In this document: positions 11,834 through 26,497 of the stretch, piece after piece | How positions within the stretch are numbered: the first letter of the stretch is position 1 | Layout of the letters: each line of letters starts with the position of its first letter | NCBI GenBank assembly: GCA_965232515.1 | Contig: CBDDPY010000002.1 | Coordinates: 1,344,001-1,408,000, forward strand | DNA: 64,000 nt | Source: Alphaproteobacteria bacterium | Lineage (GTDB): Bacteria > Pseudomonadota > Alphaproteobacteria > GCA-2731375 | Direction: 5' to 3' | Position numbers and translations under genes: made by a program | Notes under the pieces: generated by a model | Told to the model about the DNA's origin: nothing | Databases searched by the model: none | Seen by the model: only the letters and a program-made list of their open reading frames with translations

Positions 11834-11923
11834 TGGCGGATGGGGTGGGATTCGAACCCACGAGACGCGCTAACGTCTGCCGGTTTTCAAGACCGGTGCC
11901 TTAAACCGCTCGGCCACCCATCC
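11834..11923 (-). tRNA. tRNA-Ser(TGA), 90 nt, encoded CCA
   Basis: GGATGGGTGGCCGAGCGGTTTAAGGC-ACCGGT-CTTGAAA-ACCGG, long variable arm, GGTTCGAATCC, CCATCCGCCA. Confidence 0.97.
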
Positions 11924-11925
11924 GC
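11883..11925. repeat. att core copy 1 (5' half of the intact tRNA-Ser)
   Basis: GTTTTCAAGACCGGTGCCTTAAACCGCTCGGCCACCCATCCGC, identical to 26407-26449. Confidence 0.95.
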
Positions 11926-11954
11926 AATAATGATTTCAATCACTTAACAAAATT

Positions 11955-11987
11955 GTCGGGGCCGCGATACACCGCAAGAGCCCCGAC
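11955..11987 (-). terminator. Hairpin downstream of the integrase, possible terminator
   Basis: GTCGGGGC / GCCCCGAC arms, followed by AATTTTGTT on -. Confidence 0.45.
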
Positions 11988-12007
11988 TTGCAACCCAATT
12001 GCAACCC
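11988..12007 (+). repeat. Paired integrase arm-type sites
   Basis: TTGCAACCC-aa-TTGCAACCC; the same pair recurs at 26269-26289. Confidence 0.75.
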
Positions 12008-12017
12008 GACCGGCCGG

Positions 12018-13169
12018 TCAGCGTTCTACCATTGGTCTCAATATCGCGTCTATCCGGTTGGCCGCTTCTTCCTGCATTCCCGGCAGCACATGCGAATAGG
12101 TGTCGAGCGTGATCGAGACCGACGCATGGCCGGCGCGCTCACTCGCCACCTTCGGGTGCACGCCTTCAAGCAGCAGGTGCGAGATGTGCGTATGCCGGAG
12201 ATCGTGAAACCGGACGGTCGGGACATCGATGCCGGCGATGCGGCGGGCAAACTCGCGGGTGAGGGAGCGCGGCTGGACTGGCGCGCCGTCATAGCGGCAG
12301 ATAACCAACCCCTCGTCGTCGCGCCCCATGCCTTGGGCAAGCCGGAGCTCGGCCTGCTCGCGCCGATGGCGCCGCAGGGCATCGACCGCGACCGCAGGCA
12401 ATGAGATCGTCCGGCGCGAGCGTGCCGTCTTCGGCGGCTGGAACTGCACGCCCTTGGCTGTCTGCTCCAAGGTCTGGGTTACCGAGATGGACGCGCCGTC
12501 GAGATCGACATCGCGCCAGCGCAGACCAAGTATCTCGCCGCGGCGCATACCTGTGGTGACGGCCAGCAGGACCGGCATGTAAAGCTTGGTGCCGCCTATC
12601 GCGTCGAGCAGGACGCCAGTTTCCTTCGGGGTCAGGATCCGCATTTCCTTCCGCACCGGCCGCGGCGGCTCGACATCCTTGGCCGGGTTCCTGGCGATCA
12701 TCTGCCAGCGCACGGCCTGCTTTAGCGCCTGGCTGAGTATGCGGTGGTGGTGCTTCACCGACTGGGCGGAAAGACCTCCCTTGCCATCACGGCGGCCCGA
12801 TTCGAGCGCCTTTGACCATGCGGTGCTGATATGGACCGGCTGCAGCTTGCTGAGAACGTGCGTGCCCAGCGCCGGCACCAGATGATGGTGCACGATGTCG
12901 GCGTAGCGCTCGAACGTCTTCGGTCGAACGCTCGGCTTCACGGTGTCAAGCCACTGCTGCAGGAACTCGGCAACCGTGGTGCGGCTCGGCTCGACATACT
13001 CATTCGCATCCAGCGCGGCCAGCAGGCGGTTGAGTTCCCGCTGAGCATCGCGCTTGCCGCCGCGGACAGTGTGCCATTTGGTGCGGCGCTTCCCGGTCTC
13101 AGGGTCGCGCCCGATATCAATCTTTATCGCCCATGATTCCTTACCGCGCTTGCGGATATGACCTTTCAT
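12018..13169 (-). CDS. int: Tyrosine integrase with N-terminal arm-binding domain
   Basis: MKGHIRKRG, TGMRRGEILGLRW, FHDLRHTH, RAGHAS, DTYSH. Confidence 0.95.
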   Translation of the reverse strand: MKGHIRKRGKESWAIKIDIGRDPETGKRRTKWHTVRGGKRDAQRELNRLLAALDANEYVEPSRTTVAEFLQQWLDTVKPSVRPKTFERYADIVHHHLVPALGTHVLSKLQPVHISTAWSKALESGRRDGKGGLSAQSVKHHHRILSQALKQAVRWQMIARNPAKDVEPPRPVRKEMRILTPKETGVLLDAIGGTKLYMPVLLAVTTGMRRGEILGLRWRDVDLDGASISVTQTLEQTAKGVQFQPPKTARSRRTISLPAVAVDALRRHRREQAELRLAQGMGRDDEGLVICRYDGAPVQPRSLTREFARRIAGIDVPTVRFHDLRHTHISHLLLEGVHPKVASERAGHASVSITLDTYSHVLPGMQEEAANRIDAILRPMVER

Positions 13170-13717
13170 TTCAGCCTCCCGATCAGATCGCCCAGCCATT
13201 CCCGGATGCTGGGGAACATCTTCAACTGTTTTGAGTATTGAACGCCCTTCTCCGGAAGCGGCGTCTCATAGGTCATTTTCAACTGATCGATGATCCCGAG
13301 AGCGGTGGCCTCCGCCAATTGCTCGGGCTTAGGTGCCCAGCTTAGATGGGCCGGCGCCTTGGTCTTGCCCGCGGGTCGGAAGGCCAGCAACAGCTTTGCA
13401 ATCGCCTGGGCAGTGACCTCGGTGGTGTAAGCGTCGCTCGCCCAGTGCCGCCGCGTGATCATCTCGACCGAGTCAAAGACCTCGTTGAACAGCCGCGCAA
13501 ACGCATAGCGCTCGAGGCTATCGAACCGCTCCCGGATTTGCTTTTCATCGTCGAATGACCCGCGCAGCCGCGCCTCGACCTCCTGGCTAAGTGACATGTT
13601 GCTCGCCGCCCGGGCGTCCTCCAACGCCTGCCGCAAGTCGGCTGTAATGCGCGTGGTGAGCACGGCCCGCTTGTCCTCATAAGGCCCGCTTGGTTTGCGT
13701 CCGATCTTCCTTGGCAT
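13166..13717 (-). CDS. Ribbon-helix-helix (Arc/TraY-like) regulator, probable repressor
   Basis: VLTTRITADLRQALEDARAASNMSLSQEVEARL. Coupled to int and divergent from xis. Confidence 0.7.
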   Translation of the reverse strand: MPRKIGRKPSGPYEDKRAVLTTRITADLRQALEDARAASNMSLSQEVEARLRGSFDDEKQIRERFDSLERYAFARLFNEVFDSVEMITRRHWASDAYTTEVTAQAIAKLLLAFRPAGKTKAPAHLSWAPKPEQLAEATALGIIDQLKMTYETPLPEKGVQYSKQLKMFPSIREWLGDLIGRLK

Positions 13718-13898
13718 CGTCTCGTCCTGCTTAATTTGTCTTCACTATTTTTCACTCTGATGCGTTTTGATGTGGTGCGCAAGCACAAAAAGGGCTATAG
13801 CGGCTAGAGGCGAAACAAAACGAGACCGGCCGAGGCCACAGAGGGGGCCGTAGTCCTAGGGCTCGACCAACTGCGAAGCGCAAAGGAAAGGAAACATC

Positions 13899-14093
13899 AT
13901 GCTGGAAAACCCGAAGACCATCAGCGTCCCCGAGGCCGGCTGGCGCTATTTCGGTCTCAGCAAGAATGCGTCCTATGAGGCCGCCAGGCGCGGCGATCTT
14001 CCCGTCATCCGCATCGGTCGCATCCTGCGCGTCCCGGTGGCCGCGATGGACCGAATGCTTGAGCAGGCCGGCCAAAACGAACGCGCTGCCTGA
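13899..14093 (+). CDS. Excisionase/AlpA-like DNA-binding protein
   Basis: TISVPEAG...GLSKNASYEAARRGDLPVIRIGRILRVP. Confidence 0.85.
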   Translation: MLENPKTISVPEAGWRYFGLSKNASYEAARRGDLPVIRIGRILRVPVAAMDRMLEQAGQNERAA

Positions 14094-14302
14094 CGCGACG
14101 AGTAGAAAGAGGACCGAGCGCTAGCCGCGAGCCATGACCGCAAGGCTCACTATCGATGCTGAGCGAGAACGCCGGCTGTGCGACGGCGAAAGATCGCCAG
14201 ACCGCGCAGGCGGTACGACGGACATGGCAGCAGATGCGGCCATGAACACGTTTGAGAGGATCGGCGAGATTGTCGACCGAATCGTAAAGCGGATTTGGAT
14301 CG

Positions 14303-14866
14303 ATGATTGAACTCGACTTCGACCCCCGAGAGACCTTCTACGCCTGCGGGCGCGATGTCCGACAGAGCCACATTGATCGGATCTGCCGGCACGTCACACC
14401 GCGCGCATTGCTCGGCGGCGGCGGCTTCGGTGTTGCCCGCATCCAGTTCGACGGTGACAGGTTCGATTTCGACGCCGCCGGCTTCGAAGCGTTCATTCTG
14501 GCCGCAAGAGAGTCACGGTGGACCGATCAGCTCGGAACCATAACCCCCATTATCGATCTCGTTGCCTGGCTGCCCGACCGCCCGCAGGTGTTCGGCGTGC
14601 TGGAGGGCCGCGCCTGGGCACTCGGGGAGCCGGCTCTATCGCCGAACCGAATGACCGCAGTCCCGGTCGTGCGAACACCGCTCGCCTGGCTGCAGCACGG
14701 CGGCGACGCGCTGCTGATCCTCGATCGCAAGCGGGCTTGGCTAGAACTGATGCACGGGCCGGCCCTGATCGCCGAAGACGTGCAGCATGGCCGAGAGCTG
14801 CGAGAGATCGTCAACCCGCCGAAATGGACGGGCGAAATCATGTTGCGGGAGAGGGCGGCAGCATGA
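14303..14866 (+). CDS. Replication-associated hypothetical protein (primase position)
   Basis: IIDLVAW...RTPLAWL motif. ATGA-coupled to the helicase. Confidence 0.65.
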   Translation: MIELDFDPRETFYACGRDVRQSHIDRICRHVTPRALLGGGGFGVARIQFDGDRFDFDAAGFEAFILAARESRWTDQLGTITPIIDLVAWLPDRPQVFGVLEGRAWALGEPALSPNRMTAVPVVRTPLAWLQHGGDALLILDRKRAWLELMHGPALIAEDVQHGRELREIVNPPKWTGEIMLRERAAA

Positions 14867-16005
14867 GCGACGACGGGTTGATCCGACTGGAGGACGCCGA
14901 ACACCGCGCCCGCGGCGGCGATCCCACGCCGATCATCGACGAACTCGACCCTGTAAGGCTGCACGGCAAGCCGATCCCGCCGCGCCGCTGGTTGGTGCCC
15001 GGCCTGATCCCGTGGAAATCCGTCACGTTGCTCGGCGGCGATGGTGGGTTGGGAAAGTCGCTGCTAGCAATGCAGCTCCAGGCCGCGGCCGCGATCGGGC
15101 AAGACTGGATCGGGTTCGAAACCCAGCCGGTCAAGTCATACGGCATCTACTGCGAGGACGACGCCGACGAGCTGCACCGCCGGCTTGCCGACATTGCACG
15201 GCATCACGGCGTCGAGCTCGGCGACCTGGCCGACATGCTGATGGCGCCGAGGGTCGGACACAACAGTGTTTTGGCGTCGACCGGCTACGACCGCATCTTC
15301 CGCGAGCTGCCGCTATTCCAGGCTGTCAAAGCGAAGTGCCGCGAGCATGGCGCCCAATTACTCATCATCGACACCGTGGCCGACACGTTCGGCGGAAACG
15401 AGAACTTCCGCGGCGAGGTGCGCACCTTCATCAACCTGCTGCGGCAGATCGCAATCGAGATCGACGGCGCCGTTGTCTTAACCGCACATCCGTCGAAAGA
15501 CGGCCTGTCGACCGGCAGCGGTATTTCGGGGTCGACCGCCTGGAACAACAGCGTTCGGTCTCGCGTCTACCTGACCCGGCCCAACACCGACGACGGCGAG
15601 GAGGACCGATCGGACGAACGGGTGCTGAAGACGATGAAAGCCAATTACGGCGGCCTGCATGACGATATCCGGCTCGTCTGGCGGGATGGCGTTTTCGTCC
15701 GCATCGAGGAGCCGAGCGGCACCATTGGTGCCATCGAGCGACGGTCAGCGGAAGGTGCGTTTCTGGAGGGTCTGGACGCGCTGCAGCGCCAGGGCCGAGC
15801 GGTTAGCGAGTCCCGCAATGCCGGCAACTTCGCGCCGAAGGTAATCGCCGGCATGAAGGTCGGGAAGCGGCACGGCCGGGGCAAGTTGGCCAAGGCCATG
15901 GAGCGGCTTTTCGACGAAGGAAAGATCAAGGTCGAGACGTACGGACGCACCGGCGATCGGCACAAGCGCATCGTCATCGTCGGCGAGGAGGGGCACGAAA
16001 AATGA
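14863..16005 (+). CDS. RepA/AAA_25-family (RecA-like) replicative helicase
   Basis: Walker A GDGGLGKS, Walker B LLIIDT, AHPSK, SGSTAWNNSVRSR, KANYG. Confidence 0.9.
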   Translation: MSDDGLIRLEDAEHRARGGDPTPIIDELDPVRLHGKPIPPRRWLVPGLIPWKSVTLLGGDGGLGKSLLAMQLQAAAAIGQDWIGFETQPVKSYGIYCEDDADELHRRLADIARHHGVELGDLADMLMAPRVGHNSVLASTGYDRIFRELPLFQAVKAKCREHGAQLLIIDTVADTFGGNENFRGEVRTFINLLRQIAIEIDGAVVLTAHPSKDGLSTGSGISGSTAWNNSVRSRVYLTRPNTDDGEEDRSDERVLKTMKANYGGLHDDIRLVWRDGVFVRIEEPSGTIGAIERRSAEGAFLEGLDALQRQGRAVSESRNAGNFAPKVIAGMKVGKRHGRGKLAKAMERLFDEGKIKVETYGRTGDRHKRIVIVGEEGHEK

Positions 16006-16007
16006 GC

Positions 16008-16172
16008 TGCGTCGGTCCCGTTTCGCCACCTCGTAAGTCATTGATTTTATTCGCGTCGGTGTGTGTTCGACGATTTTGCGTAGGTGTCTGAGAAAATGAA
16101 AGAAAATCAATCACTTAACTCTTGCGTCGGTTCTGCGTCGGTGTGTGCCTACCCCCATAGGGGGGTAGGGCA
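16008..16172. promoter_or_regulatory. Putative replication origin of the element
   Basis: Five GCGT(C/A)GGT iterons, two inverted IHF-like sites, an AT-rich patch and a CCTACCCCC/GGGGGTAGG palindrome right after the helicase. Confidence 0.65.
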
Positions 16173-16243
16173 GGGCCCCCGCTCGTCGGGGGAGCCCACT
16201 GCCCCAGTTCCGTCACTCCCCTTGGAAACCCGGAGGAACCGAA

Positions 16244-16588
16244 ATGCTTGATGACATCACCTGCGCCGAGTTCGGCCAGCGCGTGGTCGACGAACTCGCG
16301 CGAACCTGCCCGCATCTGCAGCCTTTCCTCGTCGAGACCGCCCGGTTCGGCGCGGTATGCACATTCGCTCGCGAGAAGAAGTTGGGCGGCGACAAGCCGG
16401 CCTGGCAGATCCTCGAGTCGGCGCTTGCTGACATCTTTCACGTGGCGCGCCGGATAGGCACCGGCGGCGATGACATGACCTGGACCGTGGTTTCGGACAA
16501 GGCCGCGCTTCGCGAGGCGCTGACCGCCGTTTTGCAGCCCGAGCCGGCGCCCGAGCCCGAAGAACCGAACATCCTTATGGCCGGTTAG
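16244..16588 (+). CDS. Hypothetical protein
   Basis: GGAGG RBS; first gene of a co-oriented cluster. Confidence 0.7.
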   Translation: MLDDITCAEFGQRVVDELARTCPHLQPFLVETARFGAVCTFAREKKLGGDKPAWQILESALADIFHVARRIGTGGDDMTWTVVSDKAALREALTAVLQPEPAPEPEEPNILMAG

Positions 16589-16631
16589 GACGGCGAAACC
16601 GGCGTCTGTCTGCACAGTGGAGACCGCGCAA

Positions 16632-16868
16632 GTGAGCGAAAAGACAAAGGAAACCGGGAAACGCCCCCCTCGTGTCGGCCGTCTTGACACCGTTGGCGGC
16701 GTCGTCGCGGAGCTGGGCAAGATCTATCGAGCGGCCCGCCGCGGCGATATCGACACCCAGGATGTGACCCGGCTCGCCTATGTGCTGTCGCAAATCCGCG
16801 CGGCCATCGAAAGCAGCGAAATCGAGCGCCGGCTTGACGAGCTTGAACGCAAGGCAGGAACGCTATGA
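16632..16868 (+). CDS. Small helical protein, possible small-terminase-like oligomerisation domain
   Basis: RLDTVGGVVAELGKIYRAARRGDIDTQDVTRLAYVL...IERRLDELE. GGAGA RBS. Confidence 0.6.
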   Translation: MSEKTKETGKRPPRVGRLDTVGGVVAELGKIYRAARRGDIDTQDVTRLAYVLSQIRAAIESSEIERRLDELERKAGTL

Positions 16869-17179
16869 GCAAGCGCCTCCGCGCCCGGTTGGAACGCCTC
16901 GAAACCGCGAAGGCAGATGCCGAGGCGTTCTGCAACACCATCGTCGTTCTGCCCGGAGAGACGCACGACCAGGCGCTCGGTCGCCTCGGCTTCGAGCCTG
17001 GCCCAGTCGACATGACCATGTTCGTGCAGCGGTTCGCCGAAGACGCGCAGCCAGAACCGGTAAAGCGGACACCGCTCGTCGGCAGACCAGCCGGGCCGCT
17101 CCGGGTTGTTATGGCCGACGACTGGAGCCGGGAAGACTGGGACCTGACGGAATACGCCGACTGCGAGGGGCGGTCATGA
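16865..17179 (+). CDS. Hypothetical protein (RLxRL...PGET, copy 1)
   Basis: ATGA coupling on both sides. Confidence 0.7.
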   Translation: MSKRLRARLERLETAKADAEAFCNTIVVLPGETHDQALGRLGFEPGPVDMTMFVQRFAEDAQPEPVKRTPLVGRPAGPLRVVMADDWSREDWDLTEYADCEGRS

Positions 17180-17364
17180 GGCGGAGCATCACACATCGCC
17201 TCGACCGCGTGGCCCGCCGCGTCGACCCGTCGCCGGGGATTGTATTTGTCATTATCAAGCCCGGAGAGACGCGGGAATCCGTCATGGCCGAAAGGGGCCT
17301 GACCGGGCGCAAGTTCCGAGCCCTCTACATCATCGACCTGACGAAAGGGGAACACGATGAATGA
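17176..17364 (+). CDS. Hypothetical protein (RLxRL...PGET, copy 2)
   Basis: 62 aa MRRSITHRLDRV...IIKPGETRE, ATGA coupled. Confidence 0.65.
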   Translation: MRRSITHRLDRVARRVDPSPGIVFVIIKPGETRESVMAERGLTGRKFRALYIIDLTKGEHDE

Positions 17365-18013
17365 ACCTGTAAACGAGGCCGAACCGTCGGCAGCCGAGAA
17401 GGTGGCCGCGACGCTCGCCGGCCTCGAAACGCAACTCGCCGACGCGACGGCCGAGCGTTCCGAGCTGATCGACCGACAGGGCCGATTGGCGATGCGCATG
17501 CACAGCGGCGACAGCGCAGCCGGCGAAGCCTATCGCGGCGTGGTGGGCGAGCGGCGCCGGCTTGATGAGACGGTCGAAAGCCTGACGCTCGCTGTGCAGG
17601 CGGCCCGCGCCGAGCATGAGCAGGCTGTCAGCGACGATATGGCGGCCGCCGAGGCAAACCGGGCCGAGCGTATCGACGCCCTACTCGACCTGCGCAATGC
17701 GGCGCTTGCCGACGCCGAGCGAGCCTTGCGCGAGGCGCTCGACCGGCTGGACCGAGCCGGCGAGCTGGCGGCCGAGATCGTCGAGGTTCGCGGCGCTGTC
17801 AAGAACCTGCCCCGTTTCAGCAACACGCTGCACCCCGAAAACACACGCGACCGGCTGTCGTGTTCGGCCAACGCGTTCGGGCTCGGGCGGTGGCTCAATC
17901 TCGATCAGGAGCGGATGCCGTTCATCAGGGACGACACGCCATCGTCGCTGGTCGACGTCGAGGCACCCGTACAGGACCGATATCGACTGACCGAGAAGGA
18001 GCACGCGGCATGA
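17357..18013 (+). CDS. Coiled-coil hypothetical protein
   Basis: Long Ala/Glu/Leu/Arg heptad pattern; coupled in operon. Confidence 0.75.
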   Translation: MNEPVNEAEPSAAEKVAATLAGLETQLADATAERSELIDRQGRLAMRMHSGDSAAGEAYRGVVGERRRLDETVESLTLAVQAARAEHEQAVSDDMAAAEANRAERIDALLDLRNAALADAERALREALDRLDRAGELAAEIVEVRGAVKNLPRFSNTLHPENTRDRLSCSANAFGLGRWLNLDQERMPFIRDDTPSSLVDVEAPVQDRYRLTEKEHAA

Positions 18014-18363
18014 ACGCGCAAGAGGCACAACGGAAGATCCGCGCCATCCTGGCCGACAAGGATCACGCCTATCACGATTCTCGTAGTCCACAGCATCAAG
18101 ACGCTGTGGACGTGATGCAGGGGCTTTACGAGATCGTCTATCCGGTCAGCGAGCCCGAGCCCGGCGGGCAGCGGTTCGCCGAGCTGGCGCAATCCCAGAT
18201 CCGGAAGAAGGAAAGCGATCCCGACTTCATGGCGGCGTACCGCGAACCCGGCCACGCCGATCACGCGCAGGCGGTCGAGACCATGAACCGGCTTTACCGC
18301 GAGGCGCACCCGGAGCCCTCGATCGAGGAAGGGTTCGCAGACGCAGGAGGGCCCGAGCAATGA
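18010..18363 (+). CDS. Protein of two tandem repeats resembling a podovirus scaffold C-terminal motif
   Basis: AQRKIRAILADKDHAYHDSRSPQHQDAVDVMQGLY and AQSQIRKKESDPDFMAAYREPGHADHAQAVETMNRLY. Confidence 0.7.
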   Translation: MNAQEAQRKIRAILADKDHAYHDSRSPQHQDAVDVMQGLYEIVYPVSEPEPGGQRFAELAQSQIRKKESDPDFMAAYREPGHADHAQAVETMNRLYREAHPEPSIEEGFADAGGPEQ

Positions 18364-18803
18364 CCATGAGCGGCGTTGCAACCGGCGGCCTGGGCAGCAT
18401 CGGAGACCAGCAGCACAAGCCCGATGACTTCCAGGCACTCTTGGAGACGTACGGCACCGCCTCGGCGGCCGGCGACTACAAGCACTTCAGCGAAGCGGTT
18501 GGGGACAGGCTGGTTGAAGCCGGCGTGCTGGACGAAAATAGCCCTTGGCTGACGACGTTCGTCTTGCAGGCGCAGGCGGCGGCAAAGCTCCGGGAAGTCG
18601 TCGACGGACGCGGCGAAGTGGTGCGGGATTTCGGCGGGCTCGCCATGTTCCTAAGTGATCGCGCGATGATCGGTGGCGACGAAGGGCGTCGGCTACTGCT
18701 CGAGTACGCAGACTTCCGCCAGGCGTTCGCAAAGGCATGCCGGGACGAGCTGGAAGCCCGAAGCGGACAACCAGGCTACGAAGCACCGGACGACGCCGCA
18801 TGA
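18360..18803 (+). CDS. Hypothetical protein
   Basis: ATGA coupled on both sides, GGAGG RBS. Confidence 0.7.
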   Translation: MTMSGVATGGLGSIGDQQHKPDDFQALLETYGTASAAGDYKHFSEAVGDRLVEAGVLDENSPWLTTFVLQAQAAAKLREVVDGRGEVVRDFGGLAMFLSDRAMIGGDEGRRLLLEYADFRQAFAKACRDELEARSGQPGYEAPDDAA

Positions 18804-19312
18804 CCACTGCGCCCGCTACAGTCGATTATCGCGCGCGCTCGCGGCGGCCCGTCATCCGGGAAGCGACGGCCGCCGACGTGCCCGAGCTGGTGCGCCTGGG
18901 CGCCGAGATGCACGCGGAGTCGCCGGCCTATTCCTGGCTGCCGTTCGACGACGTGCTGGCGCTCGCGAACGGGCATCGCTGGGTGATGAGCGACGAACAC
19001 TTGGTGCTGACGGCCGACGATGACGGCGACCTGTTCGGCGTGCTGGTCGGGCACCTCGGACGGTTCTTCTTCTCGCGCCGGCTGATCGCCTCCGACATCG
19101 TGCTCTATGTCCGCGCCGAACGCCGCGGCGGCCTGGCGGCGAGCCGGATGGTCAAGCGCTTCCGGGACTGGGCGACAGAGCGCGGCGCCGCCGAGATGTG
19201 TATCGGGGTAAGCGCCGGCATCGATAGCGAGCGTATCGGCCGCTGGCTGGAAGCGATGGGAATGGACATCGGCGCGGTCACGTACAAGAGGCGGCTCGAT
19301 GTCACTCCATGA
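18800..19312 (+). CDS. Phage-type GNAT acetyltransferase
   Basis: IREATAADVPELVRLGAEMHAES, LYVRAERRGG, WATERGA. Confidence 0.8.
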   Translation: MTTAPATVDYRARSRRPVIREATAADVPELVRLGAEMHAESPAYSWLPFDDVLALANGHRWVMSDEHLVLTADDDGDLFGVLVGHLGRFFFSRRLIASDIVLYVRAERRGGLAASRMVKRFRDWATERGAAEMCIGVSAGIDSERIGRWLEAMGMDIGAVTYKRRLDVTP

Positions 19313-20018
19313 ACTCGGACCACCGTTCGGCGATGATGGCGCGTGCGATCGGGATTGCGGTGGCGCGGTCCATGCCCGGCCGCAGTCGGTCGTCGTAGAG
19401 CGTGGCGAGGAGCAGCCTGTCAGCCGGGGTGAGCTCGAAAACCGTATCGGCTTCGCAGATGACGGACGGACGGTAGTGGCAGGCGTCGGCCGGCAGGCCC
19501 ATCGCCTGATAGATCTCCTCAAGGATGCAGTCGCGCTGGTCTCGTTCCGAGATGTCGGCGCCGATCAGCACAAGCGCGCCGATCACCTCGCCGTTGCCGC
19601 GTTGCGTGGCGATGTGCACCAGGCAAAGCGATGCGTTGATTTCATCGCCGGCACTTACCCATGTTGGCTGCACCTGACGAAATTGCCGGCGCGGCATAAC
19701 GGCGATTTGGAAATTGACCTGATCGTCGCGGACGGCGCTCCGGTTCCAGCCGAGACCGGTTGCTACGGCGATGTCATCCATGCTGGCTTTGAGGAAGGCG
19801 TCATGCAGGGCAAGGCTCGTTCGAGCGGCCTCACTGTCGACCCATCCAACGACTGGTTCGTTGGGCCAGCGCCGCATGGTGTCTTGGCCAACGCCGAAAT
19901 CATTACCGAAAGCGGCCACTTCGAATTGCCGGGCCACGTTCTCGGGTGTCGGCGTAATCGGCTCCGGGCCAGTCGACACGCAACCGGCGAGCAAGAGAGC
20001 GGCGAGCAGCACACGCAT
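19302..20018 (-). CDS. DUF2927-like lipoprotein
   Basis: Lipobox LLLAGC; CILEEIYQAMGLPAD; LTPADRLLLATLYDDRLRPGM. Confidence 0.8.
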   Translation of the reverse strand: MRVLLAALLLAGCVSTGPEPITPTPENVARQFEVAAFGNDFGVGQDTMRRWPNEPVVGWVDSEAARTSLALHDAFLKASMDDIAVATGLGWNRSAVRDDQVNFQIAVMPRRQFRQVQPTWVSAGDEINASLCLVHIATQRGNGEVIGALVLIGADISERDQRDCILEEIYQAMGLPADACHYRPSVICEADTVFELTPADRLLLATLYDDRLRPGMDRATAIPIARAIIAERWSEFME

Positions 20019-20056
20019 GCCGCAACCATATAGGCGCGAACAAAGGAGACGCAATC

Positions 20057-20890
20057 ATGTGTGGTACAGGCGGTGAAGGCGACAACGGCGGCGATGCCGA
20101 AGTTGACATTGAAGCGCAGGCATTCGGCGTTGGCCCGGTCGGGCAGACGGGGCCGGCACCGGGACCAGGGAATGAGCCGGGCGGGCCGTCGGACAATCCG
20201 GGTCCGGGTCAGTTTGGCGGCATCGGCGCGCCGGGCACGTCCGGGAATTTCGGCGGTGTCGGCGGTCCTGCCGATCTTGAAGCCGATCAAGCCGGGCGGA
20301 ACCCTGGCGCGCTGTCGCCGGGTAAGGGACCAGGGCCGAGCAGCAACACAGTGGGCAAGGTCATCAAAAATGTCTTGCCGTTCGGTGTGCCGCCGGCCGC
20401 TCTCGATCCGTTGGCCGAGAAGGGCGGCCGCGCAATAACAGGCCTTATCGAGGGCATAACCGGAGCGAAGGGCCAAGCCCCCGGCCAAGGCCCCAGCACA
20501 GGCAGCGAAGGCGGTCCCGCGAGCGATTTCGGCGAGAGCGGTAACTTCGGCGGTGTTGGCTTTGGTGGCGGAAACACTGGCGGCGACGGTGCGGTTGATA
20601 ATGGCGCTTCCCGACCGCTGGCAACGTCCGTGCAGACAGCCGAGCGTCAAATCGCGAACCAGCTCGGGCGGCCGGCGCCGCCGGCACGCGCCCCTGCGCT
20701 TGACCTGCCGAGCTCGAACATTGACGAGATCCGTGCCGAGCTGGAAGCAGAGAAAGACGCCCGCCGACGCCGGCGGCGCGCGACACGCGATTCAACGATC
20801 GTGACCGGTCCGCTCGGCGTGCCTGGGCAACCGGAGCTGCTGTTCACTCGCGCGATCCCCGGCGCGTCGCGTCGCCTTTTGGGGCAGTGA
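20057..20890 (+). CDS. Gly/Pro-rich protein with podovirus pre-portal virion-protein-like termini
   Basis: AAGGAG RBS, N-terminal MCG, C-terminal RRRRRATRDSTIVTGPLG...RRLLGQ. Confidence 0.7.
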   Translation: MCGTGGEGDNGGDAEVDIEAQAFGVGPVGQTGPAPGPGNEPGGPSDNPGPGQFGGIGAPGTSGNFGGVGGPADLEADQAGRNPGALSPGKGPGPSSNTVGKVIKNVLPFGVPPAALDPLAEKGGRAITGLIEGITGAKGQAPGQGPSTGSEGGPASDFGESGNFGGVGFGGGNTGGDGAVDNGASRPLATSVQTAERQIANQLGRPAPPARAPALDLPSSNIDEIRAELEAEKDARRRRRRATRDSTIVTGPLGVPGQPELLFTRAIPGASRRLLGQ

Positions 20891-21198
20891 CGATGGCCGA
20901 CGACGACAAGGTGGTCGAACTCAGCGACTCGCGCGGCGATCAGATCCAGGCCGATCAGCAATTCCTGCTCGACGAGCTACGCAAGTCTGCAGCAGCGGCG
21001 GCGGACATCCCCGATCTGGCCGGCTTCGCCCTGATCGCCTGGGACGGCGAGGCGAAGCCCTACACGCTGGTGAACCTCGGCGCGACCGTTAATCCGACCG
21101 TGCCGCGGCAGCTAATCCCGGCCTATGTGCAGATCGTCATGCAGCAGTGGCACGCGCTGTGCTGCGAGCAGGAGCGGTTAGATGGCAGTGAACTGTAA
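20887..21198 (+). CDS. Hypothetical protein
   Basis: GTGA overlap with the previous gene; DLAGFALIAWD. Confidence 0.65.
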   Translation: MTMADDDKVVELSDSRGDQIQADQQFLLDELRKSAAAAADIPDLAGFALIAWDGEAKPYTLVNLGATVNPTVPRQLIPAYVQIVMQQWHALCCEQERLDGSEL

Positions 21199-21247
21199 TT
21201 GACGCCGCTACAAACTTCCTAGTCGGTCATCGACGTCCAGTTGAGCT

Positions 21248-21592
21248 TCATTCAATACGCCAAGAATGGTCTGGATCAGGCACAAAAGTCACTCCAGATC
21301 CACTACCAACTCCGATTCCCCCCGTTTCATCCGGAATCAAGGATCCCTCATGTTTGGAATAACGGATCATCACCAGCCAACCGTTTGGCACTGAAACCCT
21401 CCAAAGCTCGTAGCACGTCGGTTGAGGTCGAATCTCGCTACCACAATCTCTCTCAATAACCTCCCATAATAGGCGGTACTGACCTGCAGACTGACCTGCA
21501 GCCGGCGCAGATATCAGCAGCAAACTCGCTGAGATAGCTGCGATGGCAATGGGAATCCCTAAAACTAGCGAGGCACGCATCGGATTGCTCAC
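21248..21592 (-). CDS. Small secreted hypothetical protein
   Basis: Signal peptide; RVSVPNGWLV...GVTFVPDPDHSW; GTGA-coupled to the Cys-rich ORF; low GC. Confidence 0.65.
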   Translation of the reverse strand: MSNPMRASLVLGIPIAIAAISASLLLISAPAAGQSAGQYRLLWEVIERDCGSEIRPQPTCYELWRVSVPNGWLVMIRYSKHEGSLIPDETGGIGVGSGSGVTFVPDPDHSWRIE

Positions 21593-21909
21593 TCACATCC
21601 GTCAAAGGGATCGCAAAAACAGCCGATCGGGCAATCCCCAGAGTGCTGACAGTACTGACCAACGCAACTCGTTGCCACAAGCTCATCAAATGACCGCAGC
21701 TCGTCCGGGCACCACGTAGCACGAATACAATTTGCCGAGCGCGCATGGGCCTCAGCAAACGAAAGTCCCTGTACATGGATTTTCTTTCGTGCGAGCGGTC
21801 CAGATTCTGGGTCTGCCACAAGGTATATCCCCGTGCCACTCATCTCGTTTTTGTTCTGGTTCGGCTGAACATACTTTGCAACTTCAGGATGAAGTTCGAA
21901 GGTCGGCAT
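21589..21909 (-). CDS. Hypothetical protein with Cys-rich C-terminus
   Basis: GGGAGG RBS; ends CVGQYCQHSGDCPIGCFCDPFDGCE. Confidence 0.7.
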   Translation of the reverse strand: MPTFELHPEVAKYVQPNQNKNEMSGTGIYLVADPESGPLARKKIHVQGLSFAEAHARSANCIRATWCPDELRSFDELVATSCVGQYCQHSGDCPIGCFCDPFDGCE

Positions 21910-22336
21910 AGCTACCTCCCGGCCAAATTGTCGAACACCATTTGATACTAGCAACCTTAGATTTTATAACAAACACCTGTAGCTATGAAACGGCAATTTG
22001 CCGGTAGACAGGTTTCCCCAATGCGCGAGCCTGCATCGGCGTCACCATGAACCCGTCGTGCTAGAGCACCTAATTTCGACCTACGTAAGGGACGTCATGC
22101 AGACATGGCACGGGCCGGCGTGCGGCCAGGAGCGGCTCGACGCCGGCAAGTCAGGGGGGAGAGAAGTAGCCCAGGCAGTCCCTTGCCGCTGTGGCGCGAA
22201 ACCTCGGCCAGAGAGGGGTGCTCTGTGGGGCATCCTTGGGCATGGAGAAAGAAAACAGGGAGGGCACCCACCTTGTTTTCGAAACTGCCGTCGATAATGA
22301 ACAGTGACGACCACAGAGCTTGCCAAGTGGGCGATG

Positions 22337-22546
22337 TTAGAGGCGCATGAACTGAACGAACGCCTGAATGGCGAACCCCGATACTACCAGCAGGAATCCA
22401 TAGAATTGGCGGTCGAACCGCTGTCCGCCACCGCTCCAGAACGGCCGGCGGTCCGGCGCCCTCAGTAGATGGTAGCCGAGAACTGCAAAGCCCACGCCGT
22501 CGCAGAGCAGCCCGACGAGATTGATGAACCCCAAACTCACAATCAT
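22337..22546 (-). CDS. Small two-TM membrane protein
   Basis: Two hydrophobic helices; AGGGGG RBS. Confidence 0.55.
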   Translation of the reverse strand: MIVSLGFINLVGLLCDGVGFAVLGYHLLRAPDRRPFWSGGGQRFDRQFYGFLLVVSGFAIQAFVQFMRL

Positions 22547-22577
22547 TGTCGCCCCCTTCTGACGTTGGCGGAGATTG

Positions 22578-23105
22578 TTATGTCGATGGACTGTCTTCAG
22601 ATGTCACGCCTTCCACATCTGACATTTCGATCGGCGGTATTCGCAGGTACAGCGGCCGCCCAAACGTGTGGTAGATCACGCCATAGACACGCTCGGTATG
22701 GGACCATTCAATCAAGTCTTGTGTCTGCTGGCACTGCGACATGAATTTCTCGCCAACCTTAAGAACGTAAGGGAGTGGATAGACGTCGCCTGGATGCATC
22801 ACGACGGCTGCCTTAGTCGATTTGTTGAGAAGCCAACTCCACCAACCGTCATAACCGAGCAGACCGATGGTGGTTATGGTCGTTGGGGTGGAGCCCGTGT
22901 TGGCAACGTCAAAGATCACGTATTTAGTGTCTCTTTCGAAGCCTCGGCCCCCGGCGAAAATCATGTTCGGCCGTGCCCATCCCTGTAACCGCGGTCCCCT
23001 CGACCACCATTTGATGGCATCCCAAACCAACACGAACGTCGCAACAATCGCCGCATAGATCGCGACAGGGTCGATTTCGTCGGCCAGATCAAACGTAAGC
23101 TCCAT
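22578..23105 (-). CDS. Membrane-anchored hypothetical protein
   Basis: N-terminal TM (VAIYAAIVATFVLVWD) then a beta-rich domain (FDVANTGSTPTTI). Confidence 0.7.
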   Translation of the reverse strand: MELTFDLADEIDPVAIYAAIVATFVLVWDAIKWWSRGPRLQGWARPNMIFAGGRGFERDTKYVIFDVANTGSTPTTITTIGLLGYDGWWSWLLNKSTKAAVVMHPGDVYPLPYVLKVGEKFMSQCQQTQDLIEWSHTERVYGVIYHTFGRPLYLRIPPIEMSDVEGVTSEDSPST

Positions 23106-23173
23106 GCTGGCACCCGCCTTTTCGATTTACGTTCGGCGCAATCTACAACCGATAATACAACCTAGCGGGCATA

Positions 23174-23198
23174 GAAAAGGCCCCGCCGAAGCGGGGCC
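23174..23198 (-). terminator. Intrinsic terminator of the Cre-like recombinase operon
   Basis: GGCCCCGC-TTCG-GCGGGGCC-TTTTCT on -. Confidence 0.85.
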
Positions 23199-23240
23199 AG
23201 TAGAGTCTTGGTGCGGCGAGGAAAGCGCCGCGGGGCCAGC

Positions 23241-24203
23241 TTACACGCGGTTCTGCGCTGTCGCCAGCTTGGCCGCCGCACCGCGGCGAACCATCAGGTT
23301 CTCGGTGTAGCGCGACACCATCAGCGCCGTTTTCCAGCCGCCGGCCTGCATGATGCCCGGCAGCTCGATGCCAGCCGCGACCATGTCCTGAGCGCAGCCG
23401 ACGCGCGTTGAATGCCCGGAGATGTCCGAGACCAGCGAATCGGCAACGCCGGCAGTGGCGGCCATGCGCTTGTAGATCCGGGCCACGTCGCCGCCCCGGA
23501 GACGGCTGCAGACGGCGCCGCCGAGCCGGACGGACCGGAACAACGCGCCATGCGCGATGTCGGCCGCCCGCAGCCACGCCGAGAGGTGCGCCACAGTGTC
23601 AGCCGCCAGGTACCGCATGGAGCCTTCGCCGCTCTGGTCGGTTTTGCTGCGCCGAATGAGCGCCGTTCCGTCGCCGGCCTCGGTCACATCGATGTCGGCC
23701 ACGTCCAGCGCCACGAGCTCGCTGCGCCGCGCCAGCGTGTCATAGGCGACGGACAGCAGCGCACGGTTGCGAAGGCCGATCGGCGTGTCGGGACAGGCCG
23801 CGAGCATGCGGTCGACCAGCGGGCGTGTCAGCCCGGCCGCCTGCCGCTGCCGCCGGCCTTTCTCGCGGTGCATGCGCTTCATGGCGAGCTTGACGGACAG
23901 GTCATCGGTTGGCGTCGGCACGCCTGCCGCACGGTGGAACATGGCGATGCTCGACACGTACCGCTGCACCGTCGCCGGCGCCCGGGCCTCGGACATCGCG
24001 TCGATGAACGCCACCACGGCCGCAGGGGTCGCGGGGAGGGGCGTGAACCCCTCCCGTACGCACCAGGCCGTCCAGATGGCCGTATCGCTCTTGAGCGCCC
24101 GCTCCGTCGCTTCGGCATAGGCGCCGCGGGCCTGCTCGGCGTGCCGCTCGAGATTGGCCAGCACATCGGCCGGCAGCGGCGTGACGGTGGTGAGCGCGTT
24201 CAT
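23241..24203 (-). CDS. Cre-like tyrosine recombinase
   Basis: YAEATERALKSD..W..WC, RNRALLSVAYDTLARRSEL, RSKTDQ, SGHSTRVG, GGWK, VSRY. Confidence 0.9.
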   Translation of the reverse strand: MNALTTVTPLPADVLANLERHAEQARGAYAEATERALKSDTAIWTAWCVREGFTPLPATPAAVVAFIDAMSEARAPATVQRYVSSIAMFHRAAGVPTPTDDLSVKLAMKRMHREKGRRQRQAAGLTRPLVDRMLAACPDTPIGLRNRALLSVAYDTLARRSELVALDVADIDVTEAGDGTALIRRSKTDQSGEGSMRYLAADTVAHLSAWLRAADIAHGALFRSVRLGGAVCSRLRGGDVARIYKRMAATAGVADSLVSDISGHSTRVGCAQDMVAAGIELPGIMQAGGWKTALMVSRYTENLMVRRGAAAKLATAQNRV

Positions 24204-24517
24204 GACGAGCCTCCAACACTCAGGCCGACACTCCACAAAAGGGGCAACGCCCTTGTCTCGGGTCCAGGCTGCCGGCCCTCGTCAACAGCGATGCGCCAGT
24301 ACCGCGCGTCGAAGTCGAACGGCGGCCGCAGCGGATCGGCGTTGAGCCGCCACGCCAACAATGACGCCTCCTCCTCAAGCCAAGCCCAGTATTTGCGCAA
24401 GGCCTCCTCGGACGGGCGTTCGATGGCGGCGACGATTTGCGGCTTGATGATGGCCGCCGTCGATGCGATGGCGCCCATACCTTTGACGACAGTGCGACGG
24501 GAAACGTTCGTTTTCAT
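24200..24517 (-). CDS. Hypothetical protein with twin-arginine-like N-terminus
   Basis: MKTNVSRRTVVKGMGA; GGGAGG RBS; ATGA-coupled to the recombinase. Confidence 0.65.
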   Translation of the reverse strand: MKTNVSRRTVVKGMGAIASTAAIIKPQIVAAIERPSEEALRKYWAWLEEEASLLAWRLNADPLRPPFDFDARYWRIAVDEGRQPGPETRALPLLWSVGLSVGGSS

Positions 24518-24528
24518 GGCCGCCTCCC

Positions 24529-25167
24529 TCACACCCAAGCCTTGCCGCAGGCCAGATACTCGACCGTCTGATTGCTGGCGATTTGCGCCCGGCACCCTTC
24601 CGCCGACTGTTGGGTAAACTCGTTGTCGGCAAGATCGTTTTCCCGGTCGTGGTTGTCTTCGGCCGGGTCGTCGTCTTCCAGCGGGTCGTCATCCTCGTTG
24701 TCGTGGTCAGGCTCCATGTCGGCGGCTTCGCTGCCGAACTCGGCCAGCCAGGCCAGCAACGGCGGCGTGACGGGAACGAGCAGGTAATCCAGATCGCCGT
24801 CGACGGGGATAAGGTCAGCGTCGGCGACCAGCGCGGCAACGACCAGCGTCGCCTTGTGCGCCATCTGCCGCCGCAAGATCGCCGCTTCACCGGTCATAGC
24901 GATGGCGATGTTGGTGGCGGCTGTCCGCCGGCCAGTCGGGGCGCACCGGTGGTACTTCAGCAGTCGCGCCAGCTTCAGCAGCACATGCCGTGTGAAGTCG
25001 AGCCCGATGTCGTCGTGCACGTCGAGCAGATCGGCCGGCACGTCCGGCAGAAGGTGCGGCAGGTGTTCTGCCCGGTCATAGGACCTGGCCGATTCGCGGA
25101 CGAAGTGCTTGCGCGACGCAATGCCGATCGCGCGGGCTTGCGCGGCAGCCATTTCGATGGGTGTCAT
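24529..25167 (-). CDS. Hypothetical protein with acidic tail
   Basis: First ORF after the c4-like leader; DMEPDHDNEDDDPLEDDDPAED. Confidence 0.65.
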   Translation of the reverse strand: MTPIEMAAAQARAIGIASRKHFVRESARSYDRAEHLPHLLPDVPADLLDVHDDIGLDFTRHVLLKLARLLKYHRCAPTGRRTAATNIAIAMTGEAAILRRQMAHKATLVVAALVADADLIPVDGDLDYLLVPVTPPLLAWLAEFGSEAADMEPDHDNEDDDPLEDDDPAEDNHDRENDLADNEFTQQSAEGCRAQIASNQTVEYLACGKAWV

Positions 25168-25218
25168 GATGATTTCCTACGTTTGGCTTTCTAGGCCATG
25201 CCAGCGGTCAGCGCTGGC

Positions 25219-25294
25219 GCCGGGAGCTAGAAACCGGACGTAGGACCGGCGGGCTTATTCCCCCGAAGGGTCTTGTATTCACCGCACTCCCGAC
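25219..25294 (-). ncRNA. c4/CI-like antisense RNA
   Basis: Closing stem CGGGAG/CTCCCG. Carries CCTACG and GTTTCTAGC, complementary to targets at 25340-25360 and 25176-25194. GGGCTTATTCCCC motif. Confidence 0.7.
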
Positions 25295-25370
25295 AGAAGC
25301 CGGGCATAAATATACCGCCAAGACCGGTGGCGGGAACCGCCTACGTTAGGTGTTTCTAGCACCGTCGATA

Positions 25371-25399
25371 ATGATAGATATGGGGCACCTAGTTTGCAA
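25371..25399 (-). promoter_or_regulatory. Sigma70-type promoter of the c4-recombinase operon
   Basis: TTGCAA-N17-TATCAT on -. Confidence 0.7.
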
Positions 25400-25473
25400 C
25401 CCTCGGCTAGTACGCAATTGATCGGAAGATTGGATCGCGGCGAGACGCAACGCTCAAACCTCAGCAATCGGCC

Positions 25474-26226
25474 ATGATGACAGTCAACAACTTCTCAGAA
25501 CTGATCGACGGAATTTCGACGATCATCGATGCGCGGCCAAGTGAGACGTGGTGGTGGCGGGGTCACGCCAGGAAGGACTGGAGCTTGCGCCCGAGCGTTC
25601 ATCGAGGCGACCTCGGGCATCGGTATGAGCAGAACTCGTTGGCGACCTTTGTTCGGTACAGCTCTGCACGGCATGCGAACTGCCCTGCGCGCAATGACCT
25701 GCCATCGTGGGCATTCCTGATGCAGCACTACGGGGTGCCCACGCGCCTGTTGGACTGGTCGGAGTCCCCACTCATTGCCGTTTATTTTGCTGTCGCCAAC
25801 CAGGCACACGAAGCTGAGGCAGGGGTGTTGTCTGGGCTACTTCCCGGCCCCATGAACCATCATGAAGCCGGCCTAGCCGGAGTGATTGGCATTAACGGGG
25901 AACCAGCTCGTTCATTGTTCTTGGCCATGAGCGATGAACGAATTCATGAAAAGCACCAAGAAATCATCGCGATACAAGCAAACCAAATGGACCCGCGGAT
26001 GCTGGCGCAGCTTTCGCACTTCACGATCCATGGCCGCGCCACACCTATTGAGCAGATCGATGTCGCGGGTCAGGTCCTCTTCCAAATAGAGATAGCGCCG
26101 CAAGCCAAGGCCGGCATTCGTGAGAGGCTGAGGCAGTTCGGAGTGAGGGAAATGAATCTATTTCCGGATCTCGAACACCTCGCTAACGAGATTCGTGAAT
26201 TGCGGTGGAAAGCGCCCGAAAGCTGA
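25474..26226 (+). CDS. FRG domain protein
   Basis: WWRGH..LRPSVHR, MQHYGVPTRLLDWSESPLIAVYFA, RMLAQ, LFPDLE. Confidence 0.9.
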   Translation: MMTVNNFSELIDGISTIIDARPSETWWWRGHARKDWSLRPSVHRGDLGHRYEQNSLATFVRYSSARHANCPARNDLPSWAFLMQHYGVPTRLLDWSESPLIAVYFAVANQAHEAEAGVLSGLLPGPMNHHEAGLAGVIGINGEPARSLFLAMSDERIHEKHQEIIAIQANQMDPRMLAQLSHFTIHGRATPIEQIDVAGQVLFQIEIAPQAKAGIRERLRQFGVREMNLFPDLEHLANEIRELRWKAPES

Positions 26227-26268
26227 ACGTCCAACTCGGCGCGAACCGTTGCCAAAGAACAGCGCCAT

Positions 26269-26289
26269 CTGCAACCCACATTGCAACCC
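26269..26289 (+). repeat. Paired integrase arm-type sites
   Basis: CTGCAACCC-aca-TTGCAACCC. Confidence 0.7.
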
Positions 26290-26406
26290 AACTGCGAAGG
26301 AATTGCCGGGATGACCGGGGACGAAGCGAAACACCGGACGCCACGAAAGGCCCGGATTTCCTAACTCTCAGGGAAGTGAAGGGACAGCGCGGTACGGTTG
26401 TAATCA

Positions 26407-26449
26407 GTTTTCAAGACCGGTGCCTTAAACCGCTCGGCCACCCATCCGC
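26407..26449 (-). pseudogene. att core copy 2: displaced 5' half of tRNA-Ser
   Basis: Identical 43-mer that ends at the anticodon loop. Confidence 0.92.
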
Positions 26450-26467: not shown

Positions 26468-26497
26468 TTTCTAGCACCGTCGTGACCACAGCGTCCA
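26468..26497 (-). promoter_or_regulatory. Probable native tRNA-Ser promoter
   Basis: TGGACG-N18-TAGAAA followed by a GC-rich discriminator (CGCGCC), ~20 nt upstream of the fragment. Confidence 0.5.

Follow-up and report, generated by a model that had tools for sequence, protein, structure and literature searches.

A tRNA-Ser island of possibly satellite-like build with head-assembly homologs of T7-type-portal podoviruses in an alphaproteobacterial genome

What kind of mobile element is the 14.5-kb island that lies at a tRNA-Ser(tga) gene of an alphaproteobacterial genome (assembly GCA_965232515.1, contig CBDDPY010000002.1), within the 64,000-nt stretch of DNA analysed here (the window)? An earlier note, made from the letters of the window, had proposed a satellite that parasitises a podovirus-type helper. 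Our analysis points, tentatively and with somewhat less than even confidence, to a satellite-like, phage-interfering element that is built like a phage-inducible chromosomal island (PICI) and directed against a temperate podovirus with a T7-type portal. The reading is carried by three genes clustered within 3 kb, o117, a GNAT acetyltransferase gene and o277 (Table 1), which, judged by their homologies, descend from the head-assembly neighbourhood of T7-type-portal podoviruses.

The product of o117 shares with the scaffold protein of these phages only its end. The 167-aa open reading frame (ORF) containing o117 matched phrog_3742 in its C-terminal 50 positions only (E 6e-6), and hhalign of o117 against six scaffolds returned a probability of 98% and an E-value of 2e-13 over the last 46 of 289 columns. 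The motif noticed earlier is thus present, and it occurs twice, with nothing else of the scaffold beside it. In the AlphaFold model each copy forms a helix-loop-helix (pLDDT, the predicted local distance difference test, 85-92); the model found nothing in PDB or BFVD at E<=0.001, and the scaffold and o218 profiles matched nothing meaningful among PDB sequences. The corresponding complete scaffold is encoded in the family relatives G021 and G022 by a gene that stands between a T7-type portal and a major head protein (phrog_3437), is a full-length match to phrog_3742 (8e-40 and 6e-35) and ends in the same motif as o117. This motif also closes a scaffold-like ORF in all ten loci found in IMG/VR, with a capsid homolog directly after it in six of them and a T7-type portal homolog within the locus in seven, and in the single metagenome locus found; the one metagenome scan that yielded the latter gave a normal portal-scaffold-capsid locus, not the contig of the o117 ortholog.

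Outside complete scaffolds, the domain is found in stand-alone small proteins and in a post-scaffold protein. A full-length o117 ortholog has 114 aa and 49% identity, and some nine other clusters contain small two-motif proteins that stand alone; three of these (P0011, P0018 and P0031) had no small viral relatives in IMG/VR. The post-scaffold protein is a 448-aa glycine-rich ORF of G021 (L048, G021:C12, 1076-2422, minus strand), which carries the motif at its N-terminus; therefore, the motif may act as a general capsid-targeting tag. A precedent is provided by CpmB of the Staphylococcus aureus pathogenicity island (SaPI) SaPI1: it has its C-terminal motif in common with the scaffold of its helper, attaches to the capsid protein where that scaffold does and alters the curvature of the shell (PMC6893505). 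By analogy, the scaffold C-terminal motif would be the capsid-binding part. A complex prediction for o117 and the G022-type major head protein scored 0.30 against a mark of 0.32 and counts neither way.

Gene o218 is the conserved neighbour of o117. Its product was modelled as a helical hairpin of about 100 residues with pLDDT above 90 for residues 11-140, and comparison of the model with PDB returned generic coiled-coil hairpins only. Six homologs with 58-62% identity were found, all of 220-221 aa and all from metagenome assemblies. The longest contig measures 29,847 nt both in the cluster of o218 homologs and in that of o117 orthologs, and these equal lengths suggest that the pair may be linked elsewhere; other contigs of these clusters have 19,494, 14,172 and 11,600 nt. 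Two other identities of o218 were considered. The pair could have been one scaffold gene split by a frameshift; the alignment of o218 with the scaffold had a probability of 0.1%, the coding frame switches exactly at the ATGA overlap, and this reading was rejected, o218 having nothing in common with the body of the scaffold. A lead from the ESM Atlas (0.89) to Psu and Sid of P4 was abandoned with hhalign probabilities of 0.8% for Psu and 0.2% for Sid. In tblastn searches of plasmids, no match was obtained for o218 or o117, and in those of 50,697 phage records none for o104, o114, o218, the 167-aa ORF holding o117, whole o277 or the C-terminus of o277.

The island GNAT had no host paralog at E<=1e-3 but matched 198 phage records, none of them reaching 60% identity and most of them podoviruses some 45 kb long. 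Its homolog in phage Paso stands two small genes before the portal and that in CRP-810 lies inside the virion module, in agreement with the virion-module origin proposed earlier. The profile phrog_1249, tried as a sign of phage origin, proved generic, with matches in all 14 control genomes and at 62 sites of the source genome; therefore, the argument for the GNAT rests on tblastn and synteny. The closest view of this synteny is a 2-kb contig of the same-genus genome G001, with the order DUF2927 (minus strand), GNAT, a 260-aa MC...FLGE protein and portal. The G001 GNAT is 53% identical to that of the island, the MC...FLGE protein is 32% identical to o277 and, like o277, matches phrog_831, and the portal (PF12236, 8e-56) starts 7 nt after it. 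Small proteins analogous to o277 also stand beside GNAT and portal in G022 and in two viral or metagenome contigs (L060 and L066), so that the description of o277 as a pre-portal MC...LLGQ protein is borne out. The T7 gp6.7 protein, considered as a family for o277, likewise starts with MC; it belongs to phrog_1391, not phrog_831, and the resemblance goes no further. This neighbourhood of a GNAT, a small MC/MG...LLG(Q/E/G) protein and a T7-type portal is conserved among podophages and was seen at L008 (86-2090), L046 (18805-19976), L060 (1480-2645) and L066 (1909-2706). One idea suggested by these sequences is that the GNAT might modify the N-terminus of the MC/MG...LLG virion protein.

The ends of the island are those of an integrative element. 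The att repeats reported earlier are present as exact 43-nt direct repeats, int1 adjoins attL, and the island falls within the size range of PICI-type satellites (8-18 kb), with att repeats at a fixed site and a terminal integrase. Because the repeat is taken from the 5' half of the tRNA, the island has come to lie where the promoter of the working tRNA copy would be expected. Elements that integrate at tRNA genes usually duplicate the 3' part of the tRNA; an att repeat from the 5' half, with the island on the promoter side, is unusual. An integrase 54% identical to int1 was found in genome G032 with matching RHH and HTH neighbours but other cargo (L052, G032:C4, 6221-8041); it likewise lies on the 5' side of a tRNA, there tRNA-SeC, and no direct repeat was found at that gene. 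The octamer TGCAACCC matches six times in the window against 1.95 expected, a number reached by one of 100 shuffles, and five of the six matches sit at the island ends or at 25395; the paired repeats are candidate arm-type integrase sites.

The early region agrees with the PICI-like layout claimed in the earlier note: att and integrase are followed by putative divergent regulators and by a helicase with an iteron spacer. Of the set of integrase, repressor and excisionase proposed there, the integrase is present and intact, and the other two are candidates: a minus-strand RHH-like ORF (a weak match, E 0.0035) faces a plus-strand HTH_17 ORF (26.8 bits against a cut-off of 27), and their sequences suggest putative repressor and AlpA/Xis-type roles, respectively. 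The helicase stands as described, with an origin-like spacer behind it. Its nearest solved relative is RepA of RSF1010 (1g8y, 6e-10), and its true start was placed at 14863 by the overlap with o187 and by third-position GC (GC3), which was used to choose among overlapping ORFs because the genome has about 65% GC. For o187 itself, a Toprim-like resemblance is a lead from the ESM Atlas only. The RepA-like helicase and the spacer would provide the island with its own replicase and a putative adjacent origin, as in PICIs. SaPI origins are composed of iterons flanking an AT-rich region beside rep.

Behind the spacer, the genes are small and tightly packed. ATGA-type coupling chains o83, o104, o62, o218, o117, o147 and the GNAT within 16617-19312, o114 ends 28 nt upstream of o83, outside the chain, and o277 and o103 (20057-21198) form a second coupled pair. 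Seven start/stop overlaps of this type occur over the island, including those of o187 with the helicase and of o277 with o103; the GC3 signal is strong, and the operon is free of frameshifts and internal stops, so that the intactness and coupling asserted earlier hold. The continuity of the operon over 16244-21198 does not: the plus-strand late ORF at 19299-20033, which the earlier note had counted in, merely shadows a DUF2927 lipoprotein gene, which lies on the minus strand, antisense between the two coupled blocks. The products of o104 and o62 have in common a pattern "RL(E/D)R(L/V) ... hydrophobic run ... PGET" and resemble small paralogs; neither had a family or phage match. Three sequencing runs of one study contain the stretch, none of them listed as RNA, and two RNA runs had no reads on it.

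No capsid, portal, terminase, tail or lysis family was matched when the island ORFs were scanned with Pfam and PHROGs, as the earlier note had stated. A phage that could supply these functions was sought in the source genome (96% complete, four contigs) with the G001 portal, with PF12236 and by tblastn with the portal, capsid and full scaffold of family relatives. None of these matched, and a PF03237 terminase was not found either. Of 33 family genomes searched with the G001 portal, five had a match, G001 among them, and therefore suitable phages circulate in the group.

A satellite-like, phage-interfering element might operate as follows. The target and presumed helper would be a temperate podovirus like the prophages in the same genus and family. 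Upon its infection or induction, the island would be excised by int1 and the HTH_17 protein and replicated from the iteron origin with the RepA-type helicase. The late operon would be expressed, with o117 as the key product, which would use its pair of scaffold-type C-terminal domains to dock on procapsid proteins where the phage's own scaffold binds, and would then either redirect assembly, much like the CpmB dimer of SaPI but in a single chain, or just poison it. The coiled-coil o218 may serve as spacer or partner, the GNAT and the gp6.7-like pre-portal protein might replace the phage's copies or compete with them, and the PDC-S15 gene at the far end would be accessory defence cargo. Packaging of the island DNA, the mark of a true satellite, may then follow.

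The region 21200-26400 is not part of this satellite-like operon layout. The 3' end of o103 (aa 70-102; 21094-21195) recurs in diverged form at about 22049-22150 with 51% amino acid identity, the copies being separated by about 850 bp of DNA low in GC. Further on is a second integrase unit. The N-terminus of o212 together with the sRNA region is found at two further places in this genome, and the same-class genome G037 has three copies of it about 994 bp apart. A supposed degenerate third att site (25319-25367) was rejected: its likeness to the core is 18 of 22 nt, and a hairpin that precedes the sRNA falls at the same place. An exact 15-mer is common to 25353-25367 and to 26468-26482, in the chromosomal flank just outside attR; the internal copy adjoins a hairpin (25315-25333) resembling the tRNA anticodon arm, and the shared 15-mer may have been left behind by an earlier insertion. 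The PDC-S15 gene adjoins attR. Satellites and prophages often carry defence cargo beside an att end.

Table 1. Positions of the features of the island in the window
Feature	Position	Strand	Remarks
tRNA-Ser(tga)	11834-11923	minus	5' end at 11923, 3' end at 11834; overlaps the left att copy
attL core	11883-11925		exact 43-nt repeat; tRNA-Ser(tga) from its 5' end to the anticodon loop (5' half), with 2 nt more
Two TGCAACCC octamer repeats	11989-12007 (11989/12000)	plus	just inside the left end; matching pair at 26270-26289 (26270/26282)
int1, tyrosine integrase, 393 aa	12018-13199	minus, towards tRNA	PF00589 1.6e-19; phrog_1 1e-81
Protein with RHH/Arc-like N-terminus, 183 aa	13166-13717	minus	candidate repressor; weak, phrog_228 E 0.0035; GC3
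HTH_17 protein, 64 aa	13899-14093	plus	Xis/AlpA-like; E 6e-6, 26.8 bits, cut-off 27; phrog_7338
o187	14303-14866	plus	no assigned function; ATGA-coupled to helicase
RepA-type hexameric helicase, 380 aa	14863-16005	plus	AAA_25 5e-32
Origin-like spacer	16006-16243		five TGCGTCGGT-type iterons around an AT-rich inverted repeat (16034-16117)
o114	16244-16588	plus	no family match
o83	16617-16868	plus	no family match
o104	16865-17179	plus	no family match
o62	17176-17364	plus	no family match
o218	17357-18013	plus	predicted long helical hairpin, helices 12-49 and 53-149
o117	18010-18363	plus	holds the scaffold C-terminal domain (phrog_3742, T7-type podoviruses) twice in tandem
o147	18360-18803	plus	orphan; matches itself only
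GNAT acetyltransferase, 170 aa	18800-19312	plus	podophage pre-portal type; tblastn and synteny
DUF2927 lipoprotein	19302-20054	minus, antisense to operon	LLAGC lipobox; Pfam 3.9e-31; likely start 20018
o277	20057-20890	plus	Gly/Pro-rich MC...LLGQ protein; C-terminus matches phrog_831
o103	20887-21198	plus	orphan; matches itself only
Low-GC stretch	21199-23140		0.54-0.58; weak coding signal; includes o175
o175	22578-23105	minus	possible membrane protein; within the low-GC stretch
Second integrase unit	23179-25294	minus	sRNA-Xcc1 match, o212, o131, int2, terminator
Strong terminator	23198-23179	minus	end of int2 unit
int2, second tyrosine recombinase	23241-24236	minus	PF00589 2e-20
sRNA-Xcc1 (RF02221) match	25211-25294	minus	59 bits; gathering score 53
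FRG-domain protein	25474-26226	plus	PADLOC candidate defence family PDC-S15, 5e-41
attR core	26407-26449		second, identical 43-nt direct repeat

A number of findings weigh against a satellite. No portal, capsid or full scaffold of a helper was found in the genome, as described above, and the Pfam and PHROGs scans brought up no gene for packaging, whether a small terminase, a pac/cos-related gene or another. The capsid binding of o117 is an expectation by analogy with CpmB. The DUF2927 gene splits the operon into 16244-19312 and 20057-21198, and orphan o103 stands after o277 where G001 has the portal. Conservation of the gene set, which the earlier note had counted on, did not appear: none of the 13 nearest helicase loci (38-48% identity, from a search of one genome each of 185,579 species) shares a late gene, o147 and o103 match only themselves among 5.8 billion proteins, the o218 profile was not found in 32 family genomes, 400 class genomes or IMG/VR, and the island as a unit had no relatives in the searches made, only o218 and o117 recurring, in metagenome contigs. 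In the assembled contigs the island forms its own unitig (11896-26442) at a depth of 67, close to the 60-65 of the flanks, and no credible excision joint was found. Finally, the DNA after o103 looks decayed, being low in GC and containing the diverged duplicate of the o103 3' end.

The main rival is a mosaic prophage remnant, in which one podovirus-like element at this tRNA, or perhaps two in tandem, has lost the block from portal to terminase through deletion and recombination, and integration and replication genes survive with a few head-module leftovers that have no collective function; we consider this rather doubtful. All relatives of the GNAT, of o277 and of the scaffold motif come from prophages or viral contigs, with portal, scaffold or capsid genes as neighbours, and where the portal starts in G001, 7 nt after the o277 homolog, the island has an orphan. 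The low-GC filler, the duplicated o103 end, the second integrase unit and the degenerate att-like hairpin suggest rearrangement, and the island is a singleton. The DUF2927 gene, which has paralogs elsewhere in this genome (G000:C2:2061592-2062311 and 4241822-4242213) and in relatives, behaves like a moron common to the island and the prophages: it goes with the GNAT in podoviral prophages too, namely in G001 and G022, and therefore the block of GNAT, DUF2927 and o277 may be a plain recombinational leftover. The objection foreseen in the earlier note, that the relatives are full-length prophages, thus applies in part: those of the three genes lie in podoviral prophages or viral contigs that bear portal, scaffold and capsid genes. 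The early genes of the related prophages have nothing in common with the island. A deletion derivative of prophages of the G021/G022 type was rejected, as no island early gene matches in 20-60 kb of the prophage regions; the replication genes of phage Paso had no match in these regions either. The gene order is also unlike that of the phages, the scaffold domain standing upstream of the GNAT and not after the portal. Gene o117 is a clean two-domain ORF with its own coupled start, which counts against a gene fragment, and with a full-length 114-aa ortholog; o218 is unrelated to the scaffold body, the operon frames are unbroken and the att repeats are still identical. If the island is only a remnant, it documents the reshuffling of head-module pieces into islands.

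Less probable, and in our estimate unlikely, is an integrative defence island that is not packaged and spreads vertically or by other means, in which the scaffold decoy, the GNAT and the pre-portal protein, together with PDC-S15, abort the assembly of podovirus heads. Standing alone, the C-terminal domain of a scaffold could plausibly compete as a dominant negative, a candidate defence gene is present (PDC-S15, 5e-41), and neither a packaging gene in the island nor a resident helper was found. However, a helicase, an origin-like spacer and excision functions of its own would be needless for a purely chromosomal defence locus, the layout agrees with that of satellites point by point, and PDC-S15 was the sole defence family matched in the 10 island proteins scanned. 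An ordinary integrative or mobilisable island with phage-like matches as incidental cargo is highly improbable: an integrase with an AAA_25 helicase occurs in many unrelated islands, including the 13 loci with differing cargo, and phrog_1249 is a generic GNAT profile, but three independent head-module homologies stand together here, the GNAT has phage relatives and a 53% identical prophage counterpart instead of a host paralog, and no relaxase or transfer gene was among the Pfam and PHROGs matches of the island ORFs.

If the satellite-like, phage-interfering reading is correct, molecular piracy would extend to a very abundant group of phages, and the motif would offer a minimal scaffold-docking domain, defined by sequence, of about 45 residues, with a helix-loop-helix fold, for the study or targeting of procapsid assembly. 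The pair of a GNAT and an MC/MG...LLG protein beside the portal would provide a testable hypothesis of N-terminal modification of virion proteins. The island might then be the first satellite of T7-type-portal podoviruses, characterised by the two-headed o117 and the coiled-coil o218 together with its own GNAT and gp6.7-like protein, and the o218/o117 pair might mark a wider, unrecognised satellite family; this broader claim we regard as doubtful. A non-exhaustive literature search found no satellite with a T7-like helper; in the two sources consulted (PMC6893505, PMC9618062), T7-type podoviral helpers are not described for P4-like satellites, PICIs, PLEs or the marine virion-encapsidated integrative mobile elements (VEIMEs).

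Among known systems, the podoviral prophages of G001, G021, G022, G006 and G005, which have a T7-type portal, resemble the island in the GNAT (53% in G001), the pre-portal MC... protein, the DUF2927 neighbour and the scaffold C-terminal motif. They differ in having the portal (PF12236), the full scaffold (phrog_3742) and the major head protein (phrog_3437), whereas the island has none of these and retains only the last 46 or so residues of the scaffold, twice, in o117. The 20-40 kb upstream in these prophages have no gene in common with the early module of the island. Capsid-forming PICIs encode their own capsid, portal and head-maturation genes, none of which was found in the island. The marine VEIMEs are small integrative elements lacking capsid genes, with Alphaproteobacteria among their hosts and with a presumed dependence on unidentified helpers, and they are described as having no capsid-remodelling genes and as packaged as concatemers (PMC9618062). 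The island, too, is a small integrative element without capsid genes in an alphaproteobacterium; it differs in having a scaffold-domain protein.

The island resembles P4-like satellites, as annotated for P4, in an integrase that lies at a tRNA and has candidate arm-type repeats, in a helicase-type protein and iterons for replication and in a late operon with putatively capsid-directed proteins. Unlike that of P4, the island helicase is RepA-like and is not an alpha primase-helicase, no P4-type primase domain being present; no equivalents of delta, epsilon or cos were found in the island, and o218 is unlike Psu and Sid (below 1%), so that neither the Sid/Psu/Delta set nor the alpha protein of these satellites was recovered.

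SaPI1-type PICIs differ from the island in host and presumed helper, here an alphaproteobacterium-like high-GC genome and a phage with a T7-type portal, and in packaging redirection: nothing corresponding to TerS, Ppi or Rpp was found in the island, and no terminase or related family was matched in the Pfam and PHROGs scans. In other respects the correspondence runs along the whole element, from the size class and the att/int ends through the putative divergent small regulators, the replication protein followed by an iteron-bearing origin-like spacer and the operon of small genes to the accessory cargo at the far end. It includes a small protein with the C-terminal motif of the scaffold and nothing more of it, as is described for CpmB (PMC6893505); where CpmB is a dimer of one-motif chains, o117 joins two copies of the motif in one chain.

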